Counted from the first letter of the stretch, positions 99 through 17,814 are shown. The stretch: DNA of 32,000 nt from Candidatus Hadarchaeota archaeon (GCA_964514965.1 CAZETV010000001.1:663063-695062); one strand, 5' to 3'. Notes: generated by a model from the letters alone, not told the origin. A program made the numbers and translations.

Positions 99-113
99 TA
101 TAACGCCTTTATA
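99..113. promoter_or_regulatory. TATAAC-N3-GTTATA-type palindrome (TATAACgccTTTATA, 1 mismatch) overlapping a TATA-like box upstream of nifS
   Basis: The sequence is read directly. It lies 17-31 nt upstream of ATG 130. It is one of five similarly spaced copies in this window. Confidence 0.4.
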
Positions 114-129
114 TATATCAGGGGCGGAG

Positions 130-1302
130 ATGAGAGCTTACTTGGACAATGGTACAACAACTCCTGTAGCTAGAGAGATAATCGAGGCCATGCTACCGTA
201 CCTCACCGAAAAATTTGGGCATCCGCTTTTTCTTTACTCACTCGGGCAAGAAGCTGCAGATGCCGTGGAAAGAAGCCAAAAAACTATAGCTGATACTCTG
301 AACGCTGAGCAAAAAGAGATAACTTTTACATCAAACGCGACGGAGGCCAGCGATTTTGCCATCAGAGGTGTTGCTCACGCCAATAGAAAAAGTGACAACC
401 ACATAATCACGACGAAGATTGAAAATCCATCAGTTTTGCGGCCATGCGAAATACTAGAAAAAGAGGGGTTCAAAGTCGATTATTTAAACGTTGACTCTCA
501 GGGATTTGTCGATTTAAAACAACTCCAAGATCTGATAAACGAAAAAACCATTCTCGTCAGCGTGGCGCAAGTTAACGATGAGATAGGCACGATAGAACCT
601 ATAGCAGATATAGGGAAGATGTTGCACGAGCAAAAACATAAGATATATTTCCACGTGAACGCCGCCGCCTCGTATGCAAGAGTTCCAATCGATGTGCAAA
701 AAATGGGCATAGACCTCATGAGCCTGAGTGCCCACAAGATTCACGGCCCTAAAGGCGTTGGTGCGCTTTATGTACGAGAGGATACAAAAATCAATCCGAT
801 GTCTTACGGCTACATCTCCATGTTTCTACTAAAACCAGGCACCGAAAATATCCCGGCAATCGTCGGTTTTGGCAAGGCGGCCGAGTTAGCGTTTACAAAT
901 TTCAACAGCCATGTAGCGCATATGCGGAAGTTACGCGACAAGCTCATGGCCGGAATTGAGGAGCGTGTGCCCCACATCTTGCTTAACGGGCCCAGAGGGG
1001 AGAAACGCAGCCCTGCGAACGTGAACTACTCATTCAAGGGAGTAGAGGGCGAGTCGGTGTTGCTCCACTTAGATCTGAATGGGATTTCAGTCGCTACTGG
1101 CTCCGCATGTTCAACGCGAAAGCTCGAACCAAGCCATGTCCTAACCGCTATAGGAGTAGGCTCAGAAGTCGCCCACGGATCCATAAGATTCACGCTGAGC
1201 CGGTACAACACGGCCAAGGAGATTGACTACGTGCTGGGAGTAGTGCCGCGCGTTATTGAAAACCTGCGCAAGATAAGCCCAATAAAACCTGAGGAACTTT
1301 GA
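130..1302 (+). CDS. nifS: cysteine desulfurase, NifS/IscS-type class V aminotransferase
   Basis: This is part of ORF 37..1302. MRAYLDNGTTTPV is a typical family N-terminus. It has the PLP-lysine motif SAHKIHGPKG and the active-site Cys loop ATGSACS. ATG 130 is preferred because the TATA-like box at 99-118 lies inside the longer ORF. Confidence 0.9.
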   Translation: MRAYLDNGTTTPVAREIIEAMLPYLTEKFGHPLFLYSLGQEAADAVERSQKTIADTLNAEQKEITFTSNATEASDFAIRGVAHANRKSDNHIITTKIENPSVLRPCEILEKEGFKVDYLNVDSQGFVDLKQLQDLINEKTILVSVAQVNDEIGTIEPIADIGKMLHEQKHKIYFHVNAAASYARVPIDVQKMGIDLMSLSAHKIHGPKGVGALYVREDTKINPMSYGYISMFLLKPGTENIPAIVGFGKAAELAFTNFNSHVAHMRKLRDKLMAGIEERVPHILLNGPRGEKRSPANVNYSFKGVEGESVLLHLDLNGISVATGSACSTRKLEPSHVLTAIGVGSEVAHGSIRFTLSRYNTAKEIDYVLGVVPRVIENLRKISPIKPEEL

Positions 1303-1311
1303 GGTGAGCCA

Positions 1312-1716
1312 GTGCCAGTTGAATTTACAGAACGGAGCCTACTTAAGTACACCCAAAAGGTAATCGAGCTATTCAAGGACCCCAAAAATATCGGAGAGAT
1401 GGAAGACCCAACTGTGACCGCAGTCGAAGGCGATCCTAAGTGTGGCGATATGTTCAAGATGTTTTTGAAAATTAAAAACGACAAAATTGTAGACGTGAAA
1501 TTCCTTTCTTTCGGGTGCGCAGCGAACATCGCTACTGGTTCAATGACAACTGAAATGGTGAAGGGAAAAACCGTGGATGAGGCGAAGAAAATCACCATTA
1601 AGCAAATTGCGGATGCTTTAGGTGGCCTTCCCGCCTTGAAAATGCACTGCGCTGTGCTCGCGTACAAAACGCTTAAAAAGGCGTTGCAGGAGTACGAGCG
1701 GAAGCTGACAGGCTAA
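1312..1716 (+). CDS. iscU: IscU/NifU-N type Fe-S cluster scaffold
   Basis: The three scaffold cysteines sit in their usual contexts (GDPKCGD, FGCAANIA, KMHCAVLA). A GAGGTGAG SD lies 3 nt upstream of the GTG start, which is 9 nt after the nifS stop. Confidence 0.9.
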   Translation: MPVEFTERSLLKYTQKVIELFKDPKNIGEMEDPTVTAVEGDPKCGDMFKMFLKIKNDKIVDVKFLSFGCAANIATGSMTTEMVKGKTVDEAKKITIKQIADALGGLPALKMHCAVLAYKTLKKALQEYERKLTG

Positions 1717-1739
1717 ACTCGGACTAATCCCAAGGGGTC

Positions 1740-2444
1740 GTGAAGATGACAAGGGACGGCGAAATATTACTCCCAAAATTCAAGCAAGAATGCTTACTTT
1801 CAAAGGGAGTCGAAGTTCTAGATTTGATGAGGGTGAGAAAGGAGACTGTGATGTATGTTCAGCCATGCGCGTCAGAGCGGGGAAAATTAATGGCAGACAT
1901 CGAACTCACCAAGGAACCCACTAAACAGTTTATCGACCCTGAAACCCTTTGCTCGCTGCTCGAGACCCACCGACGGCGCTTTGCAGAGCTGAAGTGCAGC
2001 CCAAGTTTGGGTGTGGCAAAGCTCAAGTGGAAGGGTAAAGAAATAAGCATATTCAAAAATGGAAAGTTGAAAATTCAGCGAGCGCTCGGCCGCGATGAAC
2101 TTTTGAAAGTCGCGAATTCCGTTTCCCGTTTGATTTGGGGCGCCGCCGTATGTGAAGTCTGCAAACAACCGACTCTCAACTGCGCGTCCGGAAAGTGTGG
2201 GAAATGTACTTTAGAGGAGCATGTGGCTGTGCAGGCCGATGCACTTCCAAATGCTGAGTTGTTATATCAAGTGTACGCCAATCTCGAAAAAGCGCGAAAA
2301 TCCCCTGATGAGTCTGAAAACTACCTACGGGCAGCAAAATATCTTGCGCTGTTTTTCACCATGGAGGCTCCTTCCAAGGAAGATGCAGCCATTGGACTCA
2401 TTTTACTGGCAGAAGCTGGGCGGGTAAAAACATTAAAAAGTTAA
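1740..2444 (+). CDS. hypothetical protein with a CX2CX6CX4CX2C cysteine cluster
   Basis: 234-aa ORF co-directional with nifS-iscU. The cluster is CEVCKQPTLNCASGKCGKC. I do not recognise the family. The start could be GTG 1740 or ATG 1746. Confidence 0.55.
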   Translation: MKMTRDGEILLPKFKQECLLSKGVEVLDLMRVRKETVMYVQPCASERGKLMADIELTKEPTKQFIDPETLCSLLETHRRRFAELKCSPSLGVAKLKWKGKEISIFKNGKLKIQRALGRDELLKVANSVSRLIWGAAVCEVCKQPTLNCASGKCGKCTLEEHVAVQADALPNAELLYQVYANLEKARKSPDESENYLRAAKYLALFFTMEAPSKEDAAIGLILLAEAGRVKTLKS

Positions 2445-2456
2445 AACAGAAGCTTT

Positions 2457-2471
2457 TATAACAATGTTATG
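2457..2471. promoter_or_regulatory. TATAAC-N3-GTTATA-type palindrome (TATAACaatGTTATg) on the promoter of the HTH regulator gene
   Basis: Read directly. It overlaps TTTTATAA and ends 9 nt before ATG 2480, which fits a leaderless mRNA. Confidence 0.4.
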
Positions 2472-2479
2472 TGATAACC

Positions 2480-2860
2480 ATGAAGCCTCCTTGTGAAATT
2501 GTGGTCAAAGATATCCTACCTGCGATAAGGGCGGTGCTCGTAAGGGACCTTATCAAGCGCCACAAGCTGAATCAGGTCGAGGTTGCGAAAAAGATGGGCA
2601 TCACTCAGCCAGCGGTTAGCCAGTACCTCAGCGAACTTCGAGGTGCGAGTTACGCGGGACTATTCAAGAGGCGAGAGATTGCACAATCGGTGAGGAAGCT
2701 CTCGGATACTATTGCCAGCGGGAAGGTTAAGCCTAGTCAAACCCTCCAAATGTACTGTAACATCTGCAAGCATATAAAGAAAAGAGAAATTCTTTGTATC
2801 TTACACGCAAAATCCGCCCCCTATCTAAAGGAGGAAGGCTGCCGGATTTGTCTTGGTTGA
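2480..2860 (+). CDS. archaeal HTH transcriptional regulator with a C-terminal Cys motif (COG2522-like)
   Basis: MKPPCEIVVKDILPAIRA plus the HTH KKMGITQPAVSQYLSELRG resemble my memory of the COG2522 family. The C-terminus carries CNIC...CRIC. ATG 2480 is preferred over GTG 2471. Confidence 0.65.
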   Translation: MKPPCEIVVKDILPAIRAVLVRDLIKRHKLNQVEVAKKMGITQPAVSQYLSELRGASYAGLFKRREIAQSVRKLSDTIASGKVKPSQTLQMYCNICKHIKKREILCILHAKSAPYLKEEGCRICLG

Positions 2861-3277
2861 CCTTGACACAGTCCTCGAGAGAACCGCAAGTGGATGCCCC
2901 TTGCTTTTTAATTCAAACATATTATACCAACCGAATGGTACTCGAAGAACCCTGTAGCCAGCCCTTTCTAATTTGGTTCCGATACTGGTCAATAACTGGA
3001 GCGCGAAAGTAGGAGAACCTAAATCACATGAAAGATGAGCAAACGGAAATATCACGATATTTTTGGCTTTAACTTTAGACGCGATATCTTGAATTTCCGC
3101 CACGGCTTTTTCAACCAGTCCATCCACCAGTTCATCGACCTTCTCCACGCAGGCGAAAGCGATGAGTGGGTCTCGCACCCTCCCTACCCTGTTTTCTGGT
3201 CTAATCTCTTCCGAGAATTTAGCCTTTTGCTTCACCTTGTAATTTAAATAATCAGCGTGGACAAACAATATCTTCAT
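2825..3277 (-). CDS. stand-alone archaeal ThrRS N-terminal editing domain homolog (DTD-like fold, putative trans-editing deacylase)
   Basis: MKILFVHADYLNYKVKQKA...VEKVDE...FPFAHLS...KGHPL..LSRT is colinear with the Pyrococcus ThrRS editing domain as I remember it. ATG 3277 is chosen because the longer ORF (to 3310) would run into the tRNA gene. Confidence 0.7.
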   Translation of the reverse strand: MKILFVHADYLNYKVKQKAKFSEEIRPENRVGRVRDPLIAFACVEKVDELVDGLVEKAVAEIQDIASKVKAKNIVIFPFAHLSCDLGSPTFALQLLTSIGTKLERAGYRVLRVPFGWYNMFELKSKGHPLAVLSRTVSRSTKTNPAAFLL

Positions 3278-3286
3278 GTGATCACT

Positions 3287-3361
3287 TGGAGCCGGGAGAG
3301 GGAATTGCACCCCCGTGAGCGGTTCTGCAGACCGCTGCCTGAGCTACTCGGCCACCCCGGC
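3287..3361 (-). tRNA. tRNA-Cys (anticodon GCA), CCA encoded, U73 discriminator
   Basis: Hand-folded cloverleaf. Acceptor stem is GCCGGGG/UCCCGGC. Anticodon stem is GCGGU/ACCGC with loop CUGCAGA. T stem is GGGGG/CCCUC. The 5' half resembles M. jannaschii tRNA-Cys (GCCGGGG...AGGCAGCGG.CUGCAGA). Confidence 0.85.
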
Positions 3362-3375
3362 ACTTAAAATATAGA

Positions 3376-3390
3376 TATAACGGCGTTATA
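3376..3390. promoter_or_regulatory. perfect TATAACggcGTTATA palindrome between tRNA-Cys and the CopA-like gene
   Basis: Read directly. It overlaps the TATA-like boxes that could serve both divergent transcription units. Confidence 0.45.
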
Positions 3391-3400
3391 AAATTAACGG

Positions 3401-5584
3401 TTGATGGGTATGGCGGGAAAAAAAATTGAGTTGACCATTGAGGGTATGCATTGCCCAGGGTGTGCAGCCACTATCGAAAAGGCGTTAGTGAAAACTGCAG
3501 GTATACATCGTGCAAGCGTGAACTTTACTACTAGAAAATCCACCATCGAGTATGACCCCAAAAAAGTGACCGTAGAGAGAATAAAAAAATGCGTAGAGGA
3601 CATTGGCTACAAAGCGAGAGAAGAGGAGTTATTTGAAAAGAGAAGATGGCGTGAAAAAAAGCATATCCTCTTTATACTATTTGGTTTATCCCTAACAATA
3701 CCTGTGGCCCTTACCGAACTTTTTCTTGAATTCTCAGAAAAAGCTCTCTTTCTTTTTCTTCTGGCAACCCCTGTTCAGTTCATTGTTGGATGGCGTTTCT
3801 ATCGAGGAGCATATTATTCGTTGAAGAGAAAATTTGCAAGTGTCGATGTGCTAGTTGTTTTAAGCACCTCCGCTGCGTACTTCTACAGCGTAGGGGCGAC
3901 ATTTTTTATTGCGGGACCAACTTTCTATGAAGCATCCACGGTAGTTATCACTACAATCGCAATCGGTATGACATTAGAAGAGCATGCGCGGGGGAGGACA
4001 GGGGAAGCAATTAGAAAACTCATGCAACTTCAACCCAAATCTGCTGTTGTAATAAGAAATGGAAAAGAAATTGTAGTTCAAGTCGAAGAGGTTCAAGTTG
4101 GAGATACTGTTATCATAAAACCAGGAGAAAGGATTCCAGTCGACGGCAGAGTTATCAACGGATATTCCTCCGTGGACGAATCGGCAATTACTGGCGAATC
4201 TATCCCCGTTGAAAAGAAAAAGGGCGATTTGGTGATCAGTGCAACGATAAATAAAACGGGCACATTGAAGTTTAAGGCCACAAAAGTGGGAAAAGAGACT
4301 ACACTATCCCAGATAATTAAACTGGTAGAAGAAGCCCAGACATCTAAGGCGCCTATTCAAAACATTGCGGATACGGTGGTGAATTATTTTGTACCGATAG
4401 TTCTGGCTGTGGCCGGAATCAGTTTTATTGTTTGGTTTTTTGTACAGGGATTCACCTTCTTATTTGCTTTAACCGTTTTCGTTAGTGTTTTAGTAATTGC
4501 TTGTCCATGCGCCTTAGGAATCGCCACGCCAGCCGCCTTAATGGTTGGTTTAGGGAAGGGAGCGGAACACGGAATACTAATAAAAGGGGGTGGAGCGCTG
4601 GAACGAGCACATAGGATAGATACTATAGTTTTTGATAAAACTCATACATTAACGGTCGGAGAGCCGAAAGTTACAAACGTCGTTGCATCTAGCAACAAAA
4701 AAGATGTGTTATGGTTTGCGGCTATCGCTGAAAAGGGTTCGGAACATCCTCTCGCAGGCGCCATCGTAAGCAAAGCGGAAAAAGAATTGAAGAAGGTTCC
4801 TGATGCTGATTGGTTTAAAACCATACCCGGACATGGTGTGAAAGCTAGATATAAAGAAAAGATTATCTTACTCGGTAACCGAAAATTGATGATAAAGAAC
4901 AAAATAAGTATAGACCATTTTGAAAAACAAATTACTAAATTTGAGGAAGAAGGAAAAACTGTGATGATTTTGACCGTCGGCAAAAAAGCTTTAGGAATTA
5001 TTGCCACTGCAGATGTATTGAGAAAAGATTCTTCGAAAGCTGTAAGAAAACTTCAAAAAATTGGAATAGAAGTTATTATGCTAACGGGAGACAACGAGAA
5101 AACAGCAAACGCAATAGCAAAAAAAGTTGGGATTAAAAAGGTTTTGGCAAATGTTCTCCCAGAAGAAAAATCAAAAGCGCTGAAAAAGTTGCAGAATGAG
5201 GGAAAAATAGTCGGAATGGTTGGAGATGGCATAAATGATGCTCCAGCGCTCACGCAAGCAGATGTGGGGATTGCGATCGGCTCCGGAACCGATATCGCAA
5301 TTGAAGCTGGAAATGTTGTTTTGGTCAAGGACGATTTGATGGATGTAGCCTGTCTCATGAAATTAAGCAAAAAAACAATGGGTAAAATCAAACAAAATTT
5401 GTTCTTCGCATTCTTTTACAATATCTTAGGGATACCTATAGCAGCCGGAATCCTGTATCCCTTCCTCCATACTGTAGTAGTTTCTCCTGTAATTGCTGCA
5501 ATCGCCACGATCACGAGCGACATATGCGTAGTTGGGAATTCCTTATTGCTTAAAAAGTTTAAACTAGCTAAAATTCATTCATAA
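3401..5584 (+). CDS. copA: P1B-type heavy-metal (Cu+-type) ATPase, single HMA domain, atypical DKTHT phosphorylation motif
   Basis: It carries [15 protein letters not shown] (HMA), TGES, the CPC transmembrane motif, SEHPL and GDGINDAP. The phosphorylation site reads FDKTHTLT. The start is ambiguous (TTG 3401, ATG 3404 or ATG 3410). It is markedly AT-rich. Confidence 0.9.
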
Positions 5585-5607
5585 AATCCGCCGATGGAAG
5601 TTTTAAA

Positions 5608-6276
5608 ATGAACAAAAATAAAGTGGTGTGCTTGGTTTCAGGAGGGATAGACTCCCCAGTTGCATGTGCTTTAGTAGCAAAAAAGTTTAAATGTGTACCA
5701 CTCCATTTTTGCCTCTACCCATTCACATGTGAGGAAACTTTCTTTCTAACCATGAAAGTGCTAAAAAACTTGAAAGATGTGATTGAGTTTGAAAAGGCCA
5801 TTGTTTATCCGTGGAACGAAATTTTAGATACAACTTTGAAAAATCGTCAAAAGAAGAGCTATGCGTGCGTCGCTTGTAGAAAAAGTATGTTTAAGGTGGC
5901 TGAGATGATTTGTGAAAAAGAAGACGCGGCAGGAATAGTAACTGGCGAATCATTGGGACAAAAAGCAACGCAAACATTGGCCAATTTGAGGGCGACTTCT
6001 ACGGGAATAAAGTTTCCAATCCTGAGACCTTTGCTGGGTCTAGACAAAAATGAAATCGTGAAGATATCAAAGGCTCTGGGGATTTGGCACGAACATCATG
6101 CTGGATGCTGCTTTGCCACGCCGAAATATCCAGATACCAAGGCAGACTCGCAGATACTTGACAAAGTGATAGAAGACCTTAAAATTCATGAACTTATTAA
6201 AAGGAACTCTGAAAAAATTCTAGAGGTCAGGACTTTTAAGGAAAACTTCGGAGAGTACCTTCTCACGTTAGCTTAA
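5608..6276 (+). CDS. ThiI-like PP-loop ATP pyrophosphatase domain protein (no THUMP or rhodanese domain)
   Basis: [12 protein letters not shown] is the PP-loop. [15 protein letters not shown] is ThiI-like. It has the CxxC motif CVAC plus GCC. It is only 222 aa. Confidence 0.7.
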
Positions 6277-7055
6277 TCGCGGAGTTTCCCATATGCTACC
6301 TCGGCCGCTTTTTTGCCCGAGAGTAGCATGGCACCAAAAGTTGGCCCCATTCGAGGGAGCCCATAGGTCGTGGCTACTGCCATACCCGAGACAATGAGAC
6401 CTGGGCATGCTTCTCCTGTGTGTTCCACCACCAAATCCTCTGAGTGCTCGACCCACATACCGCTGAAGCCAGAAGTCTTAATCAGGCCTCGTTCCTCCAA
6501 CTTTCGCACGATAGCTGCATCATGCCCCGTTGCATCGATTACGAGCCTTGACTCAAGCCCAACAGGATCAACACACGTGATCTCTCGCGGTAGCGCATGG
6601 ATTGGGGACCAGTTCACTACGACTCCGCCAACTCTGTTCTTCTCACGCAATATGACATCTTCGAAGCGAGTCATGTTAAGAATTTTCGCTCCAGCATCAC
6701 AGGTTGCCGCGACCAGCTTCGAACAAGCGTGGGGGCCCTCCGCGACATACAGACCCTCACTGAATTTTTTACAGGGGACCCCAATTTCTTCTAAAACTTT
6801 CTGAGCGGGTGCCCTAATCGTAACTTTGTTCATTAGGTAACCACCGATCCAAAAGCCGCCACCGAGGTAATTGTTGTGTTCAATCAATAGAACCTTTGCT
6901 CCTCTCTCTGCAAGATCCCTCGCAGCTATCAGGCCACTCGGACCAGCGCCGACCACAATTACATCACTTTCAACGTATTCTTGGAATTCCTTCGCGAACT
7001 CGCCCACGATCGCTCGAGTTATTTCCTTTTCCCCTACCGGTTCGAAAGTTACCAT
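6273..7055 (-). CDS. thi4: thiazole synthase Thi4 (ribose-1,5-bisphosphate isomerase-like family)
   Basis: [29 protein letters not shown] is the dinucleotide fold. GGG.W.GG and IDATGHDA are typical of archaeal Thi4. Confidence 0.9.
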
Positions 7056-7092
7056 TTTTTTCCCTCTATCAATTATGTGCTACCTTATAAAT

Positions 7093-7107
7093 AATAACGC
7101 TGTTATA
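7093..7107. promoter_or_regulatory. TATAAC-N3-GTTATA-type palindrome (aATAACgctGTTATA) in the thi4 / COG1900 divergent intergenic region
   Basis: Read directly, with 1 mismatch. Confidence 0.35.
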
Positions 7108-7200
7108 AACTAAGGTTTATGGTTATTCCTGTGAGTAATTTTTTAATCCAAAAAATATAAATATCAGTATTTATCACTTGTTCCTGAAATAGGGGGAATT

Positions 7201-8718
7201 GTGTTGACTAAAACCAAAGTTAACAAGTCGGTGGCTGAGATAAACGACCGAATCAGGCGCGGCGATGCGGTGATCGTGACAGCGGAGGAAATGGTAGAAA
7301 TCGTGAGAGAAAGAGGTGAAGTCGAAGCTGCTAAGGAAGTGGATGCGGTCACTACTGGCACCTTTGGGGCGATGTGCAGCTCGGGAACTTGGCTGAACTT
7401 TGGACACGCAGACCCGCCAATCAAAATGCAACGAGTATGGCTTAACGATGTCGAGGCGTATACAGGAGTTGCCGCTGTCGATGCATACATAGGTGCAACG
7501 CAGCTCAGCGAGACCCGCGGATTCGAGTATGGTGGAGGGCACGTTATCGAAGATCTGATCCGTGGAAAAGAGATGGAAGTCCGAGCGATCGCATACGGCA
7601 CCGATTGCTACCCGCGTAAGGAACTCGAGACCACCGTGACCAAGGACGACATTAATCAAGCTGTCCTCTGCAACCCCCGTAACGCCTACCAGCGCTACGT
7701 AGCAGCCACGAACTCGCGTGATGAAACTATCTACACCTACATGGGCACCCTGCTGCCGAACTACGGCAACGTAACATATTCGGGGTCCGGCAGCCTAAGC
7801 CCGCTCCACAACGACCCCAACTACGAAACAATCGGGATCGGGACGCGAATTTTCCTAGGGGGTGCTCAAGGCTACATATTCTGGGAGGGAACTCAACACG
7901 CCCCAACTAATGCAATGGGCACCATCATGACCGTCGGGAACTTGAAAGAAATGGACGCACGCTACATCAGGGGAGTAACGGTCGAAAAGTACGGGACTTC
8001 GCTCTACGTCGGCTTGGGGATTCCAATTCCAATTATAAACGAGAGAGTTGCAAAAACTACGGGCATAAGTGATGAGGAGATAAAAACAGACCTTACTGAC
8101 TACGGGGTTCCTCGAAGGAGCCGCCCTATTCTCAGGAAGGTTACCTATGCTGAATTGAAATCTGGGAAGATTGAAATCAACAACGATGAAGTACTCGTCA
8201 GCCCCTTGAGCAGCCTGAAGCGAGCGAGAGAAATCGCTGGCGTCTTAAAAAAGTGGATTGAAGAAAAAAGATTCTTCCTTTCTCAACCAGCGGAGAGACT
8301 GCCTATCGACCAAGTGTTCAAGCCAATGAAACAACTCGCAGGCGTCCCATTTGTCAGGGACGTTATGACACGAGAGGTAGTAACCGCCAAGCCGAGCGAC
8401 TCGATCGCCAGCGCGGCGAAGATACTTGCGAAGCGCAACTTCGACCATCTACCGATCGTAGATGCCAAAGGGAAACTCGTGGGAATAGCGACTTCGTGGG
8501 ACATCGCCGTGGCAGTCGGGACTGGTAAGAAGAAATTATCAGATGTTCTGACTTCCAAAGTTATCACGGCAACTGAGGACGAGCCAGTCGATGCTGTAGC
8601 GAGGAGACTTGAAAAACACAAAATCTCTGGGGTTCCTGTGATAAACGCCCGTGGCGAGCCCAGAGGAGTCCTGACGAGTCAGGATCTATCTAAGTTGTTG
8701 GGGGGACGAGGAAAATGA
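7201..8718 (+). CDS. homocysteine biosynthesis protein, COG1900 (DUF39) domain with tandem CBS domains (MJ0100/MA1821 family)
   Basis: VTAEEMVEIV, VTTGTFGAMCSSG, DPPIKM, NPRNAYQRY and YMGTLLP are colinear with MJ0100 as I recall it. The C-terminal ~130 aa form two CBS repeats. Confidence 0.85.
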   Translation: MLTKTKVNKSVAEINDRIRRGDAVIVTAEEMVEIVRERGEVEAAKEVDAVTTGTFGAMCSSGTWLNFGHADPPIKMQRVWLNDVEAYTGVAAVDAYIGATQLSETRGFEYGGGHVIEDLIRGKEMEVRAIAYGTDCYPRKELETTVTKDDINQAVLCNPRNAYQRYVAATNSRDETIYTYMGTLLPNYGNVTYSGSGSLSPLHNDPNYETIGIGTRIFLGGAQGYIFWEGTQHAPTNAMGTIMTVGNLKEMDARYIRGVTVEKYGTSLYVGLGIPIPIINERVAKTTGISDEEIKTDLTDYGVPRRSRPILRKVTYAELKSGKIEINNDEVLVSPLSSLKRAREIAGVLKKWIEEKRFFLSQPAERLPIDQVFKPMKQLAGVPFVRDVMTREVVTAKPSDSIASAAKILAKRNFDHLPIVDAKGKLVGIATSWDIAVAVGTGKKKLSDVLTSKVITATEDEPVDAVARRLEKHKISGVPVINARGEPRGVLTSQDLSKLLGGRGK

Positions 8719-9116
8719 CTCGAAAGATACTATTAAGGTACTCCACTCAGAAAGCCACAGAGCCCATTTTAACATCAGTAATCAAAGAAACTGAGACCCT
8801 GCCCAATATTCTGTACGCTGAAGTCGGCACAAAAGGTGGGGAGATACTGCTTTCAATCGATGCTTCTGACAAAGAGGTTGATAAAACAATCGCGCTGTTC
8901 AAGCAAAAAGGCATTGAGGTCCAGGAGATTAAACGCGCTATCCAACTCGACCATGATTCATGCTTCGACTGTGGGGCATGTCTCTCACTCTGTCCGACCA
9001 GCGCGCTGCACATGATTGACGACAAATCGGTCGAACTCGACGAGAACAAATGTATTTACTGCGAACTTTGCGTTCCATCATGTCCGGTGCGAGCACTCAA
9101 GCTATCAAAGTTCTAG
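8715..9116 (+). CDS. NIL domain - 2x[4Fe-4S] ferredoxin fusion (MA1822 family)
   Basis: The N-terminal ~75 aa are NIL-like. They are followed by CFDCGACLSLCP and CIYCELCVPSCP. The ATGA start/stop overlaps the upstream gene. Confidence 0.8.
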   Translation: MTRKILLRYSTQKATEPILTSVIKETETLPNILYAEVGTKGGEILLSIDASDKEVDKTIALFKQKGIEVQEIKRAIQLDHDSCFDCGACLSLCPTSALHMIDDKSVELDENKCIYCELCVPSCPVRALKLSKF

Positions 9117-9896
9117 GTGATTCAAATATACTCTCAAACTTGGTCCTTCAAGGAGACCAATCTCTACATAAAGTGCGACGATGAGCGGGCGATAGACTCT
9201 GCAATCGACGCCAGCTTACAGGCTCGAAACGATATCGAGCGATACATCCTCACAAATCCAGAGTTTCGATGGTCGCTTGAGCCCCTGAAGTTAGAAGGCG
9301 AACATCCAAAAGTCATCGAGCTTATGCTGAAAGCAGGTGAACTCGCAGGGATAGGGCCCTTTGCAGCTGTTGCCGGAGCCATCTCACAAATCGCAGCTGA
9401 AGCAGCACGAAGTGCAGGCGCCGAAAACGTGCTGGTGGAAAATGGAGGAGATATGACCATAATCGGCGCTAGAGATTTTCATATAGGGATTTTCGCGGAC
9501 GACACACAGAACTCCGGAAAAATAGGCTTCCTTGTTCGGGCTGTGGAGTTGCCAATAGGAATCTGCACGAGTTCGGGAACGATCGGTCATTCGCTGAGTT
9601 TTGGACAATCAGATGCTGTCGTAGCGGTTGCGCGCGAAACTTCGGTGGCGGACGCAGCAGCTACCTCAATAGCGAACTCGGTTAGGGGAGAGAACCTCAA
9701 ATCTTCAATCAAGCAGGGGCTGAGCCGGGCCAAACGCATCCGAGAAATTAGGGGGTGTCTGATCATGAGGAGAGAACACATTGGAACTTGGGGCAAGCTC
9801 CCTGAGCTAATTCAGGTATCGCCAGAATCCCATGAACTTTCAAACACCCAGAAAAAATATCAAAATTACAAGCCAGAACAAGCATTGATTTTATAG
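9117..9896 (+). CDS. UPF0280 / ApbE-like protein (COG2122, MA1715-like)
   Basis: GICTSSGTIGHSLSFGQSDAVVAVA is the signature I associate with UPF0280. The GTG start directly follows the upstream TAG. Confidence 0.65.
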   Translation: MIQIYSQTWSFKETNLYIKCDDERAIDSAIDASLQARNDIERYILTNPEFRWSLEPLKLEGEHPKVIELMLKAGELAGIGPFAAVAGAISQIAAEAARSAGAENVLVENGGDMTIIGARDFHIGIFADDTQNSGKIGFLVRAVELPIGICTSSGTIGHSLSFGQSDAVVAVARETSVADAAATSIANSVRGENLKSSIKQGLSRAKRIREIRGCLIMRREHIGTWGKLPELIQVSPESHELSNTQKKYQNYKPEQALIL

Positions 9897-9921
9897 AACT
9901 TCAATGTGATATTAAAAATCA

Positions 9922-10212
9922 ATGACAATCACCGTAAAATTCTTCGCGGAATTTCGTGAAGCTACCGGGAAAAGACAGGAAAACATTGAAGGAGTAAGCG
10001 ACGCTGCTTCCCTTCTTGAAGAACTCGTCCGCAGGTTTGGGGAGAAGTTAGCTAAACTACTTTACTCTCCCGACAGACAAAAGCTCCGCAAAACTGTGAA
10101 CATTTTGGTAAATGGTAGAAGGATAAGTGCCTCCCAAGGACTTAAAACGCCTCTAAAGGATGGGGATGTGGTGGCAATCTTCCCTCCTGTGTCTGGTGGA
10201 AAGGTAAGATGA
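9922..10212 (+). CDS. MoaD/ThiS-family ubiquitin-like sulfur carrier with a C-terminal KVR extension after Gly-Gly
   Basis: 96 aa. The N-terminus is ITVKFFAEFRE and the end reads DGDVVAIFPPVSGG-KVR-stop. Confidence 0.75.
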   Translation: MTITVKFFAEFREATGKRQENIEGVSDAASLLEELVRRFGEKLAKLLYSPDRQKLRKTVNILVNGRRISASQGLKTPLKDGDVVAIFPPVSGGKVR

Positions 10213-10311
10213 AGACCAAAATTTACACCTCCTTGCCTCTACTGCAAGATTGCAAAGGAGTTTTTGAATCAATGTGGTGTTGAGTTCAAGGAATTAAACT
10301 TTCAGGAAAGT
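10209..10311 (+). pseudogene. glutaredoxin/NrdH-like gene remnant (frameshifted and 3'-truncated)
   Basis: ATG 10209 overlaps the MoaD stop (ATGA). Frame 0 gives MKTKIYTS. From 10234 the next frame gives CLYCKIAKEFLNQCGVEFKELNF, a classic Grx N-terminal half. No Grx-like C-terminal half follows, and the region is overlapped by the convergent gene. Confidence 0.5.
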
Positions 10312-10675
10312 AACGCTTTAACAGCCCTCGCAACGCTCCCGCATGACGCTCCTCGTCCTTGGCGGTCGTGTAGAAGTATGCCTTTTCTGGCTCGACGTGG
10401 TGGCTCGCTTCTTCGAGCCTGACCTTAGCAGCATTCTGCTCGCCAGCAAGCATCTTCTCCAAGTTTTCCTTAGTCGCACCAACTCCATTCGCCAGCAGCA
10501 CGACTTCTGACGCATGTTCCGCCTCTTCCCACGCAATCCTTTGCAGCACTGAAGCTATCTCGGGGTAACCTTCGCGCTCCGCCTGCTTAGCCATTGCTAG
10601 GTAGAGGCCGACCTCCGATGTCTCGCCTCGCGTCCAGCTCTTGAGGTACTCCTCCAATTTCGTCATTTTTCTCAC
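10286..10675 (-). CDS. ferritin-like diiron protein of the rubrerythrin family (no rubredoxin domain)
   Basis: It has two E...ExxH pairs (EREGY...EEAEHA and GEQN...DEERHA). A GGAGGTGA SD lies upstream. Confidence 0.7.
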   Translation of the reverse strand: MRKMTKLEEYLKSWTRGETSEVGLYLAMAKQAEREGYPEIASVLQRIAWEEAEHASEVVLLANGVGATKENLEKMLAGEQNAAKVRLEEASHHVEPEKAYFYTTAKDEERHAGALRGLLKRYFPESLIP

Positions 10676-10907
10676 CTCCTACAGAAGTGGTTCATAACCC
10701 TCACAATGACGGTTATAGCAACTTTCGCAGATGTGGACTATTTCTCCCTCGTTGGCCCTCATTAGATTCTCACCGTCCCACATATCTCACTTTTCATTGC
10801 CCACCCTGCACACATCCAATCTTATAGATGGTCACGTAACGTTCGTCACCGCCGCTATTAACTTGCAACCCCCAACTGCTTTCCGAGCATCTTTTCGAGT
10901 TCGAGCC

Positions 10908-11096
10908 TTAGGTCGTCGAAGTAATCGAAGGCCACAAGTCATAAAATGGGCCGCTTAGTTCGATAACGACAGAAGGGTCTTCCAGCTTGACGAGCTTAGC
11001 AACAGCCTCGACTCCGCACCATTTATTAAATTCAGTTAAAGCTCGAACCACAAACTCTTTGTAGCCACGAGTGTCAAAAGTCGATATCATTACCAT
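10908..11096 (-). CDS. hypothetical protein, possibly the 5' part of a disrupted gene
   Basis: 62-aa ORF starting 4 nt after the PadR-TRASH stop. Protein-like reading continues in other frames down to 10679 (see findings). Confidence 0.3.
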   Translation of the reverse strand: MVMISTFDTRGYKEFVVRALTEFNKWCGVEAVAKLVKLEDPSVVIELSGPFYDLWPSITSTT

Positions 11097-11100
11097 TTAC

Positions 11101-11547
11101 CTATTCACGGGCAAGATGTCTTTTGTAGGAGTTCGCGCAATGCACGCAGCAGAACATCAACATTTTTCCATCCATTCGCTCCTTGTGACCACCCTCGTAG
11201 ACCTTGCATCCACAGTGAGCGCACTTGGTCAACTTTGGTTCCAAAATTATAGAAACAATATCACTAAATCTGCCCAAGATTCGAGAAGTAGTTTTCCTTC
11301 CTTCACTCGTTAGCGTGTAAACTTTTTTCTTCCTGTCTCCCATCTTCACCACTTTGTGGGTCATCAGCCCGCTCTCCTCCAGCTTCTTTAAGAGCGGGTA
11401 AATCTGCCCTGGTGACGGTTTCTTGCCAAGTTTTTTCTCCAACTCCTCCATTATTTCATACCCGTGCCGAGGGGTCTCACTAAGAAGCACAAGCATGTAA
11501 AATTTGGTTAGGTTTGTGATATCCCCTCGCTCACCGACCATGAACAC
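11101..11547 (-). CDS. PadR-type winged-helix regulator fused to a C-terminal TRASH-like Cys motif (putative copper-responsive regulator)
   Basis: FYMLVLLSETPRHGYEIMEELEKKLGKKPSPGQIYPLLKKLEESGL is PadR-like. The C-terminus CAHCGCKV...FCCVHCANSY is a TRASH/YHS-like metal motif. It is divergent from copA. The start could be GTG 11547 or ATG 11541. Confidence 0.8.
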   Translation of the reverse strand: MFMVGERGDITNLTKFYMLVLLSETPRHGYEIMEELEKKLGKKPSPGQIYPLLKKLEESGLMTHKVVKMGDRKKKVYTLTSEGRKTTSRILGRFSDIVSIILEPKLTKCAHCGCKVYEGGHKERMDGKMLMFCCVHCANSYKRHLARE

Positions 11548-11571
11548 ACCATTTTAACATGAAAAGAAGAA

Positions 11572-11593
11572 ATATTTAAATATGATATATCAT
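11572..11593. promoter_or_regulatory. two overlapping perfect 12-bp palindromes (ATATTTAAATAT, ATGATATATCAT) in the padR/copA divergent promoter
   Basis: Read directly. Each sits where a TATA box for one of the two divergent genes is expected. Confidence 0.4.
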
Positions 11594-11613
11594 AAAAAGA
11601 GATATTGATAAAA

Positions 11614-14094
11614 ATGACCAGGGGAAAAATCACTGTCCGAATCAGCGGGATGCGCTGCGTGAGCTGTGCTCAAACCATCGAGAAAGCTTTAAAGAAGCAA
11701 GCAGGCGTCACGAATGTCAATGTCAACTTCGCCACAGAAAAAGCCACAGTCGAGTATGAATCAGACAAGATGAACACCGAAAAACTCGGAGAAGTCATAA
11801 AGAAAACGGGCTACGAACCTGTTGGCATCGCCCGCGAGGAAGGTCGTACCCGTGAGATAAGTCTCAAGCTCACTGGGATGACCTGCGCTTCATGCGCAAC
11901 CAAAATCGAGAAAGCGCTTAAAAGTGTGAATGGAGTTCGCCGTGCTAGCGTCAATTTCGCAACTGAAAAAGCAACTGTTGAATACGCTCCCGATATTGTG
12001 ACGCTGGTTGACCTTCGAAAGACCGTCCGAGATGTGGGGTACGGCGTAAGTGAGGAGGAGGAAGTCGACAAATCACTGACGGAGATGCAGCGAGCGCGTG
12101 TGCGTATGTTCATAGCTTGGGGCTTCACCATCCCCACCATCATCTGGATGGTAGCCGAGATGGTCTTCGGCGTGGTCTGGCCGAATTGGGAAATTTACAA
12201 CTTGGGGCTCATCCTGCTCGCCATCCCCGTACTTTTCTGGGTGGGCCTGCCGACGCTTCGTGGAGCTGCAAAAGCGATTTCCCATAAAACTGCGAATATG
12301 GATGTTCTCATCGCTATGGGAGCATCGATAGCCTTCCTCACTGGACCACCCATGTTCTTCGGAGTTCCCATTCTGAACTATTCTGGCGTTGCCGCGATGA
12401 TTATGGCATTCAATCTAACTGGCAGATACGTCGAAAACCAGGCAAAGGGTAGAGCATCCCAAGCTATTAAAAAGCTCCTAATGCTCGAAGCCAAATCTGC
12501 GCGCATTCTCGTTAAGGGCAAAGAGAAGGAAGTTCCGATTGAGGATATAAAAGTCGGCAATGTAATAATCGTGCGCCCCGGTGAGAAAATCCCAACCGAT
12601 GGGGTGATCATTGAGGGCGAAAGTGCGGTTGACGAATCAATGGCAACAGGTGAGTCCATGCCCGTGCATAAAAAGAAAGGGAACGAAGTCATTGGAGCCA
12701 CGGTCAACCAAGAGGGCCTCCTCAAAATCAAGGCCACGAAGGTCGGAAAAGACACTTTCCTCTCGCAAGTAATTAAAATGGTCGAGGAGTGTCAGGGAAC
12801 CAAGGTTCCAATCCAAGAGTTCGCCGACAAAGTCACCGGTTACTTCGTACCCGCCGTGCTGCTGATTGCCACGGCAACTTTCATTCTCTGGATTGCCGTG
12901 CCGGGTTTTATAGGAGGTGTCGCCACTTGGGCACAATCGTTCCTACCTTGGGTCAATCCAACATTGGGTGCGTTCACCCTCGCAATCTTCGCCACAGTCG
13001 CCGTACTCGTCATCGCCTGTCCATGTGCCCTTGGTTTAGCCACACCTACCGCACTTATGGTCGGCAGCGGATTAGGTGCAGAAAATGGCATCATCATCCG
13101 AAGGGGCGAGGCCATCCAGACACTCAAGGATGTAAATACAATCGTCTTCGACAAAACCGGTACCATCACCCAAGGTAAGGCAGCGCTCACCGATGTCGTC
13201 GCGACAAAGGACTTCACCCAAGGCGAGGTTCTGAGGCTGGCCGCGAGCGTCGAGGCTGGATCCGAACACTCCATTGCCAAGGCAATTGTATATGGAGCAC
13301 ACACCAAGAAAGTCAAGCCCGTGAAGTCTAAGGGATTCAAAGCGGTGCGGGGAAAGGGCGTTCGAGCTACCATCGATGGAAAGCAAATCTTAGTCGGGAA
13401 TCGCCTCTTCCTAAAGGAGACCAGCATAAAGGTTGCCGCGCTTGAAAGTGAACTAAAGCGCCTTGAAGATGAGGGCAAGACCGCGGTGCTCGTCGCCTCG
13501 GGCAACAAGCTCGTTGGGGTCTGCGCGGTGGCCGATACGCTAAAGGAGGACTCGGTGCAAGCGATCAAGGAGTTACACAAAATTGGGCTAAAGAGCATCA
13601 TGATCACCGGTGACAATCCACGCACTGCCAATGCGATTGCAAGACAGGTTGGAATTGACCGTGTACTTGCGGAGGTGCTACCCGACCAAAAAGTTGCGGA
13701 AATCAAGCGCCTACAAGGGGAAGGCGGTAGCATGGTGGCGGCAGTAGGCGATGGAATAAACGATGCACCTATGCTAACACAAGCTAATGTTGGTATAGCG
13801 ATTGGTACGGGCACGGATATCGCAATCGAGGCTGGCGATGTCATCCTAGTGCGCGGCGACCTTTCGAGTGTGGTAAGCGCGATAAAGCTCTCCCAGGCAA
13901 CATTTCGCAAAATCAAGCAGAACCTCTTCTGGGCATTCGGCTACAACACCGCCGCGATACCCCTTGCGATCTTCGGGCTACTTCATCCCGTTATCGCTGA
14001 ACTGGCGATGGCGACGAGCTCGGTGAGCGTGGTGAGCAACGCCAACCTGTTGAGACGGATCAATATTCAGCCCTCTTACTCATCTGAGAGATGA
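11614..14094 (+). CDS. copA: Cu+-exporting P1B-type ATPase with two N-terminal HMA domains
   Basis: It carries [15 protein letters not shown] and [22 protein letters not shown], canonical DKTGTIT, SEHS and [11 protein letters not shown] 11605 is an alternative start. Confidence 0.92.
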
Positions 14095-14110
14095 GAGGAG
14101 GTGAGAGCAA

Positions 14111-14290
14111 ATGGCAAAGGACCCGGTTTGCGGAATGAAAGTGGACGAAGCTAAGGCTGAACACAAGGCGGAGTACAAAGGCAAAACGTATTACTTCTGC
14201 GCTCCTGTGTGCAAGACTGACTTCGAAGCAAACCCGGAGAAGTATACGAAGGGAACGGAAGCACATCATCACGGTGGTGGGCGCTGCTAG
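14111..14290 (+). CDS. YHS-domain (TRASH-like) small metal-binding protein
   Basis: 59 aa, below the ORF-track cut-off: MAKDPVCGMKVDEAKAEHKAEYKGKTYYFCAPVCKTDFEANPEKYTKGTEAHHHGGGRC. A GGAGGTGAG SD sits right after the copA stop. Confidence 0.8.
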   Translation: MAKDPVCGMKVDEAKAEHKAEYKGKTYYFCAPVCKTDFEANPEKYTKGTEAHHHGGGRC

Positions 14291-14310
14291 AAAAACTAGA
14301 AGAATATTCG

Positions 14311-14481
14311 ATGGTGAAAAATCCAGTCTGCGTCATGGACGTAGATGAGCGAAAAGCGGAGTTCAGGTAGAACTATCGTGGAAAGGTATACCCCTTCTGC
14401 TCGGTCGTGTGTATACGATGGTTCAGGAAGCGTCCGCAGAAGTACCTGAAGGGACAATCTAAAAAAGTGGACTACTTATGA
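14311..14481 (+). pseudogene. second YHS-domain gene interrupted by an in-frame TAG
   Basis: MVKNPVCVMDVDERKAEFR-TAG(14368-14370)-NYRGKVYPFCSVVCIRWFRKRPQKYLKG... is colinear with the neighbouring YHS protein. Confidence 0.6.
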
Positions 14482-14798
14482 AGAAGAACTAAACAATGCT
14501 CTGCTGTTTGGGACTTTTTGCAGATCTTTTCATCTGGCAATATCTGGGCGACCCATGGATAGTAATAGCCCCAGCCGTTGGATTCATCGTGAATTAGTTG
14601 AAGATGTGAAATTGTTCCAGAAAAAGCGTCCAGTCAAGAAGGGGGCTTGCCATGTCTGAGGTTTCCACTCGTGCTCGTGTTATTGTTCATAGCGGTATGG
14701 GCCCCCTGTTGCACAAGCGATGCCATATTCTCCCACCTATTCGCGAGAAGACCAAAACACATTAGAAGGACTTCCTAATACCCGCCGAAAGCCTTTTA

Positions 14799-14813
14799 TA
14801 TAACACTGTTATA
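14799..14813. promoter_or_regulatory. perfect TATAACactGTTATA palindrome overlapping the TTTTATATAA box upstream of the Met/Cys mini-ORF
   Basis: Read directly. Confidence 0.45.
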
Positions 14814-14827: not shown

Positions 14828-14878
14828 ATGGTGATGATGATGAGGGATTTAGTTTGCCCGTGCTGTGTTTGCTGCTGA
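14828..14878 (+). CDS. 16-codon Met/Cys-rich mini-ORF (MVMMMRDLVCPCCVCC), candidate leader peptide or metal-binding micropeptide
   Basis: Hand translation. A TATA-like box is centred ~29 nt upstream and there is no SD, which fits leaderless geometry. It lies upstream of the sulfate-reduction operon. Confidence 0.35.
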   Translation: MVMMMRDLVCPCCVCC

Positions 14879-14973: not shown

Positions 14974-15750
14974 ATGCCCATTGAGACACTAGTCGCGATC
15001 GTGCTGGTCGGGGCCTTGGGCGGATATCTCGGCGGAATCGTGGGGGCGGGCATAGGAGCGACCGTAGTCCCTGGCCTAATTTTGCTCGGCATTGACCCCA
15101 TCATCGCGATTGGCTCAAGCTTGCTGCTACATGTGCTGATAGCTCCTCTTGGTGGGATCGCTCACTACAAATTTGGACACGTACGGCGAAGAATCTTAGT
15201 TCCATTGGTTCTAGCTGGGGTTCTGGGGGCCTTCTTCGGTGCCAACGCTTCCACACACCTACCTGCAGATGTGTTGAAGCTGCTCGTAGGCATCTCAGCC
15301 ATTGCTGCAGGCCTGCTAATCACAGTTAGATACCCTAGAACCAACCAGCGAAAGTTAACACTCCCCTCTGTCAAAAAAAGACTTCGGGTAGTCAGTACAC
15401 CCACGATAACAGCAATCGCCCTTATCGTGGGACTTTTATATGGGGCGTCGGGTGCAATGTGGGGCTCGATCGGTGTCCCTCTTTTAATTATAGTTGGAGT
15501 CACCCCTCACGTTGCGGTTGGTTCATCTCTGCTGGCACGATCCATCGTCGCCTTGGCCGGATCCTCAACCTACTACTTCCTGAACGGCATTCAAGCGGAC
15601 ATCATTCTATCGTTACTCGCTGGGGGGTCAATTGCTATTTTGCTCGGCGCACTCACCACAAAACGCCTTCCGTCCAGAAAGTTAAAACTAATCGTGGGCG
15701 TAGCTGTTATCGTGCTCGGCGCATCCGTCTTGGTGAAACAGATGATTTAA
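14974..15750 (+). CDS. TauE/SafE (DUF81) family anion permease, putative sulfate/sulfite transporter
   Basis: 258 aa and polytopic, with Gly-rich helices arranged in two similar halves, as is typical of DUF81. A GTGAGGGG SD lies upstream. Confidence 0.8.
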   Translation: MPIETLVAIVLVGALGGYLGGIVGAGIGATVVPGLILLGIDPIIAIGSSLLLHVLIAPLGGIAHYKFGHVRRRILVPLVLAGVLGAFFGANASTHLPADVLKLLVGISAIAAGLLITVRYPRTNQRKLTLPSVKKRLRVVSTPTITAIALIVGLLYGASGAMWGSIGVPLLIIVGVTPHVAVGSSLLARSIVALAGSSTYYFLNGIQADIILSLLAGGSIAILLGALTTKRLPSRKLKLIVGVAVIVLGASVLVKQMI

Positions 15751-17487: not shown

Positions 17488-17496
17488 GGTGTTTGA

Positions 17497-17814
17497 ATGG
17501 CTGTCTTGATCGACGAGAAAAAGTGCACGGGTTGCGGGATCTGCGTGGAGCTTTGCCCAGGCGACTTGCTGGCTCTAGAACCGAAGTCGAAAAAAGCTTT
17601 CATCTGGGACAACTCTGACTGCTGGAATTGCTTGGTCTGTGTCAAACACTGCCCCGTGGACGCCATCACTCTCAAGCTCCCAAAATCGATTGCCCCCTAC
17701 GACGCCACACTCACACCAGAAATGAGGAAAGATAAAACCGTGTGGACCTTGACCGATGCCAGCGGCGAAATGGAAAAGTTTGAGATAAAAAGGAAATCTG
17801 CAGGAGGTGCTTGA
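17497..17814 (+). CDS. aprB: APS reductase beta-subunit-like 2x[4Fe-4S] ferredoxin (short form)
   Basis: It carries CTGCGICVELCP and CWNCLVCVKHCP. It is 105 aa and sits directly between the aprA-like gene and sat. Confidence 0.7.
   Translation: MAVLIDEKKCTGCGICVELCPGDLLALEPKSKKAFIWDNSDCWNCLVCVKHCPVDAITLKLPKSIAPYDATLTPEMRKDKTVWTLTDASGEMEKFEIKRKSAGGA

Follow-up and report, generated by a model that had tools for sequence, protein, structure and literature searches.

A TATAAC-N3-GTTATA palindrome as the predicted operator of a cysteine-rich helix-turn-helix protein in an archaeal sulfur and Fe-S gene island

To our knowledge, essentially nothing is known about the control of sulfur uptake, cysteine synthesis and the building of iron-sulfur (Fe-S) clusters in strictly anaerobic archaea. 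A 32,000-nucleotide (nt) stretch of DNA from a Candidatus Hadarchaeota archaeon (GCA_964514965.1, CAZETV010000001.1:663063-695062; hereafter the window), in which a palindrome of the form TATAAC-N3-GTTATA recurs on promoters of sulfur-related genes, raises the question of what reads this element. An original prediction, made from the sequence alone, proposed that it is the operator of a dimeric regulator and offered as an alternative that it is merely the TATA element of this lineage. We estimate at about 75% the probability that TATAAC-RNY-GTTATA is the operator of a 126-amino-acid (aa), Cys-rich helix-turn-helix (HTH) protein encoded in the window, here called REG, which would repress the regulon of one sulfur/Fe-S island including its own gene. 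What is gained is a testable triplet of protein family, 15-bp operator and conserved regulon.

Confinement of the palindrome to one island

The study genome (G000) comprises 1.28 Mb in three contigs and is 94.5% complete; the window corresponds to C1:663063-695062, and positions given without a contig are those of the window. A search of the whole window with the pattern TATAACNNNGTTATA, allowing up to two mismatches, returned exactly five sites (Table 1). All five are intergenic, and they reproduce every coordinate and every quoted sequence of the five copies originally listed. Site 1 falls inside an open reading frame (ORF) only on paper, as the longest-ORF call stretches nifS to an upstream ATG. 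In 100 dinucleotide-preserving shuffles of the window the mean number of sites was 0.59 and the maximum 3, so that none reached five. Across the entire genome, six sites were found with at most one mismatch, all of them intergenic and all inside C1:663161-695078 (32 kb). Non-ORF DNA makes up approximately 10% of the genome, where about 0.8 sites are expected, and the probability of six sites all falling into one 32-kb span is approximately 6e-8. Scored with a symmetrised position weight matrix (PWM), the six island sites reached 18.9 to 24.3 bits, while the next best matches genome-wide scored 15.8 (coding) and 15.3 bits. The core ATAAC-N3-GTTAT occurs four times in the genome, every time in the island, and among the spacings N0 to N8 only N3 is enriched, the others having zero to one genome copies each.

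Three further candidates were rejected as operators. The match of 15.3 bits at C1:339929, between IleRS and an operon of a small winged-HTH protein and RFC, is probably an ordinary TTTAAA box. The other two had been pointed out as related elements of the window and are indeed present, but neither is significant as a site. The GTTATA half-site at 14946-14951 occurs at chance level (the hexamer is found once per 3.1 kb of genome) and is not conserved in the orthologous leader of genome G012. The zero-spacer element GGTTATAACC before SepCysS is indistinguishable from chance, the zero-spacer GTTATAAC having 10 genome copies; in genome G038 a canonical site occupies the equivalent SepCysS position, 6 nt upstream.

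The promoters of the genome at large were surveyed in the DNA upstream of 313 genes that are preceded by free intergenic space. Their A/T content peaks approximately 35 nt before the start codon, and the enriched hexamers are TTTAAA, TTTATA, TAAATA and TATATA; TATAAC occurs 10 times in these regions, mostly inside the palindromes. Because other promoters use TTTAAA/TTTATA boxes and the six sites are confined to 32 kb, we reject the reading as a generic TATA box. The genome-wide comparison with unrelated promoters called for at the outset thus found the motif exclusive to the island, and together the scan and the promoter survey exclude a symmetric, bidirectional TATA element typical of the lineage.

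Association of the palindrome with REG in Hadarchaeota and other archaea

Co-occurrence within the phylum was evaluated in 52 genomes that are at least 80% complete, 26 with and 26 without REG. At least one perfect palindrome was present in 23/26 REG-positive genomes (44 sites, versus a single match of the control pattern) and in 3/26 REG-negative genomes. Other Hadarchaeota families have the palindrome before the same target genes. A site precedes nifS in G012, G005, G013 and G040 (13-19 nt upstream) and thiF-nifS in G017 and G029; it precedes thiI in G012, G005 and G029, and copA1 in G017 and L080. The thi4/hcyBio arrangement of the study genome recurs in G008, G029 and G039, and an orthologous perfect site stands before tauE-aprAB-sat in G012. 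Further sites were found before a second cysteine desulfurase (G029) and an ArsP-type permease (G040) and, in G038, before a YeeE-type sulfur transporter with TusA and before an FTR1 iron permease. All six sites of G029 lie within 8.3 kb of REG, and five of the six in G017 within 10 kb. These recurrences support the proposal of a coordinated sulfur/Fe-S regulon.

About half of the sampled Hadarchaeota possess the island (REG, nifS-iscU, the sites and a second tRNA-Cys; C1:663000-699600 in the study genome). Within six genera, presence and absence of REG and palindrome flip together, which suggests that the island was gained or lost repeatedly as a unit. Since REG, targets and sites travel as one island, much of the co-occurrence within the phylum is linkage and not independent evidence; furthermore, no close nifS orthologue was found in REG-negative genomes. 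Both facts weaken the case for REG, and we replaced the co-occurrence table by a test on thi4. Of 23 REG-negative genomes 21 have this gene, and three of these copies are 71-74% identical to that of the island. In none of the 21 genomes is there a site with up to one mismatch within 1.5 kb of thi4. The palindrome is therefore not intrinsic to the promoters of these genes.

Beyond the phylum, a scan of named genomes for the invariant peptide of REG yielded 328 loci; counts by lineage refer to the best 80 of these. The 80 loci contain 80 motif matches with at most one mismatch, versus 9 for the reversed control. The palindrome lies at most 80 nt upstream of the REG gene at 16/23 Hadarchaeota and 4/4 Aenigmatarchaeota loci, and also in Bathyarchaeia, Nanohaloarchaea, Thermoplasmata and Methanomassiliicoccales, its distance varying between lineages from 12 to 66 nt. 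Within the order of the study genome nearly every locus of a REG homologue has a palindrome, typically 6-14 nt before the ATG, with conserved half-sites and variable spacers. The motif thus stands on the promoter of the REG gene itself in five or more further archaeal lineages with differing gene contexts, which argues for the HTH protein at 2480-2860, singled out in the original prediction, as the probable regulator.

Neighbouring genes differ among phyla and are nevertheless always sulfur or Fe-S genes. Aenigmatarchaeota have the order site-REG-sufC-sufB-sufD-sufS-sufU, and Methanobacterium and Methanobrevibacter the order site-cysK-cysE-REG-cysS. The Bathyarchaeia locus contains thiF, a ThiI-like gene, a PALP enzyme, thiS and also a second paralogue, the Methanomassiliicoccales locus contains feoB, and in Thermoplasmata the palindrome is found 15 nt before thi4. 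Overall, the pairing recurs in Hadarchaeota, DPANN lineages, Bathyarchaeia, Thermoplasmata and Methanobacteriaceae, and the predicted regulon spans nifS-iscU or suf, cysK-cysE, thi4, thiI, thiF/thiS carriers, SepCysS, sulfate reduction, and iron and sulfur transporters. Regulon prediction from sequence thereby becomes possible in uncultured archaea.

Pooling 123 distinct sites revealed that the otherwise unconstrained spacer carries a purine at position 7 (84%) and a pyrimidine at position 9 (84%), i.e. a symmetric R-N-Y, and that the flanks are 75-80% A/T. The invariant half-sites are matched by the invariant recognition helix and cysteines of REG, which we count as support for the pairing. 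In Methanobacterium sp. UBA44 (L146:3940-4066) three palindromes stand in tandem before cysK, a central TATAAC-GCT-GTTATA having on either side a TATAAC-TATA-GTTAT(A) copy whose spacer is 4 nt long. This arrangement suggests cooperative binding of several dimers in methanogens.

These data also bear on the broader proposal that the palindrome is a symmetric bidirectional TATA element or a non-regulatory repeat of a mobile island and has no dedicated binder. Its half-sites are TATA-like, its copies are located in core promoters, two divergent genes share site 3, and the island is limited to about half of the Hadarchaeota. However, no other promoter of the genome bears the palindrome, 23/26 REG-negative relatives have zero perfect copies and thi4 promoters devoid of it, C6, G10 and the R-N-Y spacer are kept across phyla beyond what a TATA box needs, and the element accompanies one protein family across phyla of very different G+C content. 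We consider the probability of this proposal negligible. A mobile-element or recombination site is ruled out by the length of 15 bp, the core-promoter placement and the conservation with one protein family across phyla.

REG as a candidate repressor sensing Fe-S or sulfur status

REG matches the XRE-type HTH family PF01381 (HTH_3) with 25.3 bits (gathering cut-off 23), the match spanning only residues 22 to 53 approximately; 62 of 63 REG homologues match the same family. Its cysteines follow the pattern C5, C93-x2-C96, C106, C121-x2-C124. Invariant across the 63 homologues are M1, C5, E6, the helix residues T42-Q43-A45-S47-Y49 (recognition helix ITQPAVSQY), C93 and C96, whereas C106, H109, C121 and C124 are kept in at least 90%; short forms of approximately 104 aa stop just past the CxxC. 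The AlphaFold2 model is confident (pLDDT 82) and all-helical without a beta wing. Helix 1 of the DNA-binding domain directly follows C5-E6, and a C-terminal helical domain contains C93-x2-C96. No family in Pfam or NCBIfam covers the whole of REG or its C-terminal domain, Foldseek found no structure in the PDB resembling it beyond the HTH (best E = 1.5), and phmmer and profile searches of the PDB returned weak HTH matches only. We found no description of REG or of the TATAAC-N3-GTTATA operator in the literature; the original prediction had called the protein COG2522-like, and the single paper found to mention COG2522 has no bearing on it.

The invariant Cys5/Glu6 and Cys93-x2-Cys96, joined in long forms by Cys106, His109 and Cys121-x2-Cys124, most likely bind an Fe-S cluster or a metal. 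The pattern of C5/E6 plus C93-x2-C96 is compatible with Fe-S ligation by three cysteines and one other residue. There are precedents: in IscR, NsrR and RsrR the cluster site is completed by N-terminal residues, and the WhiB-like proteins combine a helical fold with a CxxC. We give a role of REG as an Fe-S cluster sensor about even chances; a thiol or persulfide switch has a considerably lower, still appreciable probability, and so has a structural metal combined with another signal. REG is moreover a compact candidate sulfur/Fe-S biosensor for anaerobes.

In function REG comes nearest to IscR and SufR, and SurR is the archaeal precedent for a response to sulfur. None of the bacterial regulators IscR, SufR, CysB and CymR reached threshold when families and structures were searched here. 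As we propose for REG, IscR of E. coli and other bacteria, a [2Fe-2S] protein of the Rrf2 family, is a small repressor that regulates its own gene, is encoded alongside the genes of a cysteine desulfurase and a scaffold, carries its cluster on a site built from cysteines and uses a palindromic operator on an Fe-S assembly promoter; its repression by the holo-protein as an Fe-S homeostat is the model that we propose, by analogy, for REG. Unlike IscR, REG has an XRE-type HTH and an all-helical fold without sequence or fold relationship to it, acts in an archaeal host with TBP/TFB promoters, and has a predicted regulon that also spans sulfate reduction, thiamine and tRNA-Cys. Consistently, REG had no Pfam or NCBIfam match to Rrf2 (PF02082), and the PDB, searched with phmmer, with a profile and with Foldseek, yielded no Rrf2 structure. 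SufR of cyanobacteria, with its actinobacterial counterpart Rv1460 (PMC6034842), is a repressor that binds an Fe-S cluster and has a palindromic operator; its gene is the first of the suf operon. The Aenigmatarchaeota order described above mirrors this arrangement, but SufR belongs to another protein family and REG has no SufR-type or DeoR/ArsR-type match at threshold (ArsR NF033788, 23 bits for a cut-off of 55; BigR NF040642, 20.8 for 155; HTH_5, 19.5 for 22).

SurR of the Thermococcales resembles REG in its archaeal host, its link to sulfur and its CxxC; its palindrome, like the one predicted for REG, is short and consists of GTT/AAC triplets separated by 3 nt. Its operator GTTn3AAC, however, has the half-sites in inverted order relative to AAC-N3-GTT, and SurR is a protein of approximately 230 aa that has two winged-helix domains, switches through a redox-active disulfide and controls hydrogenase and S0 genes, whereas REG has 126 aa and a single HTH. 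A SurR structure has been deposited, and no SurR chain was among the PDB matches of REG. CymR/CysB-type regulators of bacteria jointly control sulfate assimilation and cysteine synthesis, to which the methanogen cysK-cysE-REG-cysS locus is comparable; they belong to unrelated families and sense O-acetylserine or a CysK complex without an intrinsic Cys site. XRE/Cro-C1 proteins such as the controller C.Esp1396I have the PF01381 HTH, bind short palindromes as dimers and are autoregulated, but they lack the N-terminal PPCE motif and the Cys-rich C-terminal helical domain of REG, and whole-fold similarity is insignificant. In common with operators in general, the palindrome is confined to promoters of functionally related genes, phylogenetically conserved, and present on the promoter of the presumed regulator.

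The position of the sites within promoters is informative. At sites 1, 2, 3 and 5 the palindrome directly follows a generic A/T box, and for thi4 such a box comes directly downstream of it. From the end of the palindrome to the start codon there are 5-19 nt in island promoters (37 nt for thi4); placement is thus variable, but always inside the interval between TATA box and start. At the island tRNA-Cys the palindrome occupies the expected TATA position, and in leaderless promoters of the DPANN type the site at -44 to -30 overlaps the region of the TFB-recognition element (BRE) and TATA box, with TTTAAATA at about -27. The originally noted doubling of the right half as TTATA(A/G)AA holds for sites 3 to 5 and fails for sites 1 and 2. 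This geometry is consistent with occlusion of TATA-binding protein (TBP) and TFB.

We infer the following course of regulation. A REG dimer would bind the palindrome, whose half-site centres, approximately 9 bp apart, suit a dimeric HTH protein. With the palindrome abutting or overlapping the A/T-rich TATA box, or lying between box and start site, binding would block the archaeal pre-initiation complex of TBP, TFB and RNA polymerase and repress transcription, including that of the REG gene. The predicted regulon would comprise nifS-iscU with the Cys-rich gene, REG, the island tRNA-Cys with the ThrRS editing-domain gene, copA-like-thiI, thi4, the leader peptide with tauE-aprAB-sat-siroheme-sir-tusA, and orf325-PALP-ThiS::ThiF, perhaps also hcyBio-NIL/Fer-COG2122-thiS. 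A cluster or metal bridging C5-E6 and C93-x2-C96 could couple occupancy to DNA-binding geometry. Occupancy would report sufficiency of Fe-S clusters or sulfide, and the holo-protein would repress as in IscR or SufR. REG is most likely an autoregulated repressor sensing Fe-S or sulfur status and a non-homologous analogue of IscR/SufR. More tentative, with the odds somewhat against it, is the wider proposal of an archaea-wide master regulator of sulfur assimilation and Fe-S biogenesis, i.e. a new Fe-S- or sulfide-sensing family with a cluster bridging Cys5/Glu6 and the CxxC, which would also control the second tRNA-Cys and be assisted by a Cys-rich leader attenuator at the sulfate operon.

The sign of regulation could be the opposite. 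REG might bind the palindrome as an activator or in a dual role, the TATA-like half-sites being weak promoters that need it to recruit TBP/TFB when sulfur or Fe-S clusters are scarce. The archaeal activators Ptr2 and TFB-RF1 act just upstream of the TATA box, and SurR both activates and represses. The latter is a precedent for dual action, DPANN and Bathyarchaeia sites lie just upstream of a canonical TTTAAATA box, roughly where Ptr2 and TFB-RF1 bind, and the thi4 site is upstream of its A/T box. Against this, Hadarchaeota sites lie between A/T box and start codon, 5-20 nt from the ATG, and the position varies from -12 to -66 among lineages, whereas activators need a fixed geometry. A site overlapping the core promoter of the regulator's own gene is moreover typical of repressors. 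The variable placement in the pre-initiation footprint and this presumably autoregulatory site favour repression, and we regard activation as unlikely.

Several observations weigh against REG as the repressor that reads the palindrome. Genomes G014, G023 and G037 have REG and no perfect site, while G015, G040 and G050, which are 82-92% complete, have perfect sites without a detected REG. A clear palindrome near REG is often missing from Methanobrevibacter and Methanosphaera loci. The palindrome-bearing tRNA-Cys is an island-specific copy, the TATA-like half-sites make a role in promoter strength inseparable from operator function, the AlphaFold2 model is that of a monomer, and the Cys ligands could hold a structural Zn instead. 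G015 (92% complete; L056:5421-5475 and L057:214-228) and G040 (82%; L065-L068) each carry three perfect palindromes before sulfur genes; either the REG gene is unassembled there or another factor reads the site. Such a factor could be unlinked or be the 234-aa Cys-rich protein (1740-2444), whose gene is always beside REG in Hadarchaeota, the HTH protein then being merely a target. However, Aenigmatarchaeota, Methanobacteriaceae and Bathyarchaeia pair the palindrome with the HTH protein where tblastn found no homologue of the 234-aa protein, the latter matches no DNA-binding family, and it is the recognition helix of REG whose invariance parallels that of the half-sites. A binder other than REG therefore appears very unlikely to us.

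The second tRNA-Cys and other genes of the island

Besides the island copy of tRNA-Cys, the study genome has a housekeeping tRNA-Cys, whose orthologue is the copy found in G001, a regulator-negative member of its genus. The two isodecoders differ in the D-arm and anticodon stem. In 10 Hadarchaeota genomes a tRNA-Cys lies 1-24 nt from a palindrome. As a test on a universal gene, tRNA-Cys would have separated regulator-positive (palindrome in 10/10) from regulator-negative genomes (0/12), but the copies compared are non-orthologous and we did not take the result as independent proof. The study genome has genes for SepRS (553 bits, exceeding the curated cut-off) and for SepCysS, and a genuine CysRS was not detected in it; cysteine is therefore made on tRNA-Cys, and an extra, sulfur-regulated tRNA-Cys gene is for this reason a plausible pathway component. 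This suggests that an amino-acid biosynthetic pathway includes a tRNA gene among its transcriptionally controlled members. In most Hadarchaeota a free-standing ThrRS editing-domain gene is located directly downstream of the island tRNA-Cys, with which it is probably co-transcribed. Its longest-ORF start at 3310 overlaps the tRNA; the true start is probably further downstream.

Table 1. Predicted operator sites, candidate regulator, predicted targets and neighbouring features (window positions unless a contig or locus is named).
Feature	Position	Strand	Remarks
Site 1, TATAACGCCTTTATA	99..113		16 nt before nifS ATG (130), directly 3' of TTTTTAAAAA box; PWM 21.0 bits
nifS	130-1302	+	First gene of predicted target operon 130..2444
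iscU	1312-1716	+	Predicted target operon 130..2444
234-aa Cys-rich protein	1740-2444	+	Predicted target operon 130..2444; no Pfam/NCBIfam match
Site 2, TATAACAATGTTATG	2457..2471		Putatively autoregulatory; 8 nt before REG ATG
REG, candidate regulator, 126 aa	2480..2860	+	XRE-type HTH about residues 22-56
ThrRS editing-domain gene, free-standing	2825..3286	-	Downstream of island tRNA-Cys
Island-specific second tRNA-Cys(GCA)	3287..3361	-	Encoded CCA; predicted target, palindrome 14 nt upstream
Site 3, TATAACGGCGTTATA, perfect	3376..3390		Divergent promoter: 14 nt from island tRNA-Cys 5' end (- strand), 19 nt before copA-like ATG 3410 (+ strand)
P1B-type ATPase (copA-like, one HMA domain) and ThiI-like sulfurtransferase	3410..6276	+	Predicted target operon; P1B-ATPase 3410-5584
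thi4 (thiazole synthase)	6273..7055	-	Predicted target
Site 4, AATAACGCTGTTATA	7093..7107		37 nt upstream of thi4 ATG (7055, - strand), 94 nt upstream of hcyBio (7201, + strand)
hcyBio (COG1900 + CBS), NIL-ferredoxin, COG2122/ApbE-like, thiS	7201..10212	+	Possible target operon; separate A/T box nearer the gene than site 4
Second CopA	11605-14094		No palindrome; own PadR-TRASH regulator 11101-11547
Site 5, TATAACACTGTTATA, perfect	14799..14813		14 nt before Cys-rich mini-ORF heading the tauE-aprAB-sat-siroheme-sir-tusA operon
Cys-rich leader mini-ORF, MVMMMRDLVCPCCVCC-stop	14828..14878	+	Followed by conserved T5 run before tauE; leader extends to 14973
tauE, aprA, aprB, sat, hemB, hemC, hemA, cysG/hemD, hemL, sulfite reductase, tusA	14974..26776	+	Predicted target operon; assimilatory sulfate reduction and siroheme synthesis
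GGTTATAACC	31364..31373		Non-canonical; 6 nt before SepCysS
Site 6, TATAACAGCGTGATA	32002-32016		2 bases beyond window end; heads orf325-PALP-ThiS::ThiF
orf325-PALP-ThiS::ThiF operon	L001:1002-4557		Window position 32002 onwards
Housekeeping tRNA-Cys(GCA)	C1:49938-50012		No encoded CCA, no palindrome

The order nifS-iscU-234-aa gene is kept in relatives; in Hadarchaeota the Cys-rich gene always follows nifS-iscU and usually precedes REG. The protein may be an uncharacterised accessory of a minimal Fe-S assembly system. Joining of the P1B-ATPase with thiI under a sulfur operator is likewise kept in G017 and L080. Since the second CopA has a regulator of its own and lacks the palindrome, this first pump may carry an Fe-S- or sulfur-linked metal rather than detoxify copper. 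At site 4, the assignment of hcyBio to the regulon is aided by genome G039, in which the site abuts this gene. Rubrerythrin and DUF169 are also encoded in the island.

The mini-ORF behind site 5 has the counterparts MRDLLCGCCDCC in G012 and MRNSLCACC in G015; together with the T5 leader it could form a translation-coupled attenuator sensing the supply of Cys-tRNA. The operon that follows combines a complete assimilatory sulfate-reduction set, with a small sulfite reductase, and five siroheme/tetrapyrrole genes, an unusual combination in an anaerobic archaeon whose genome measures approximately 1.3 Mb. Finally, the operon at site 6 encodes an unknown protein of 325 aa whose N-terminus is hydrophobic, a PALP enzyme of 421 aa and a ThiS::ThiF fusion, and resembles a cysteine or thiocarboxylate pathway that depends on a sulfur carrier protein.

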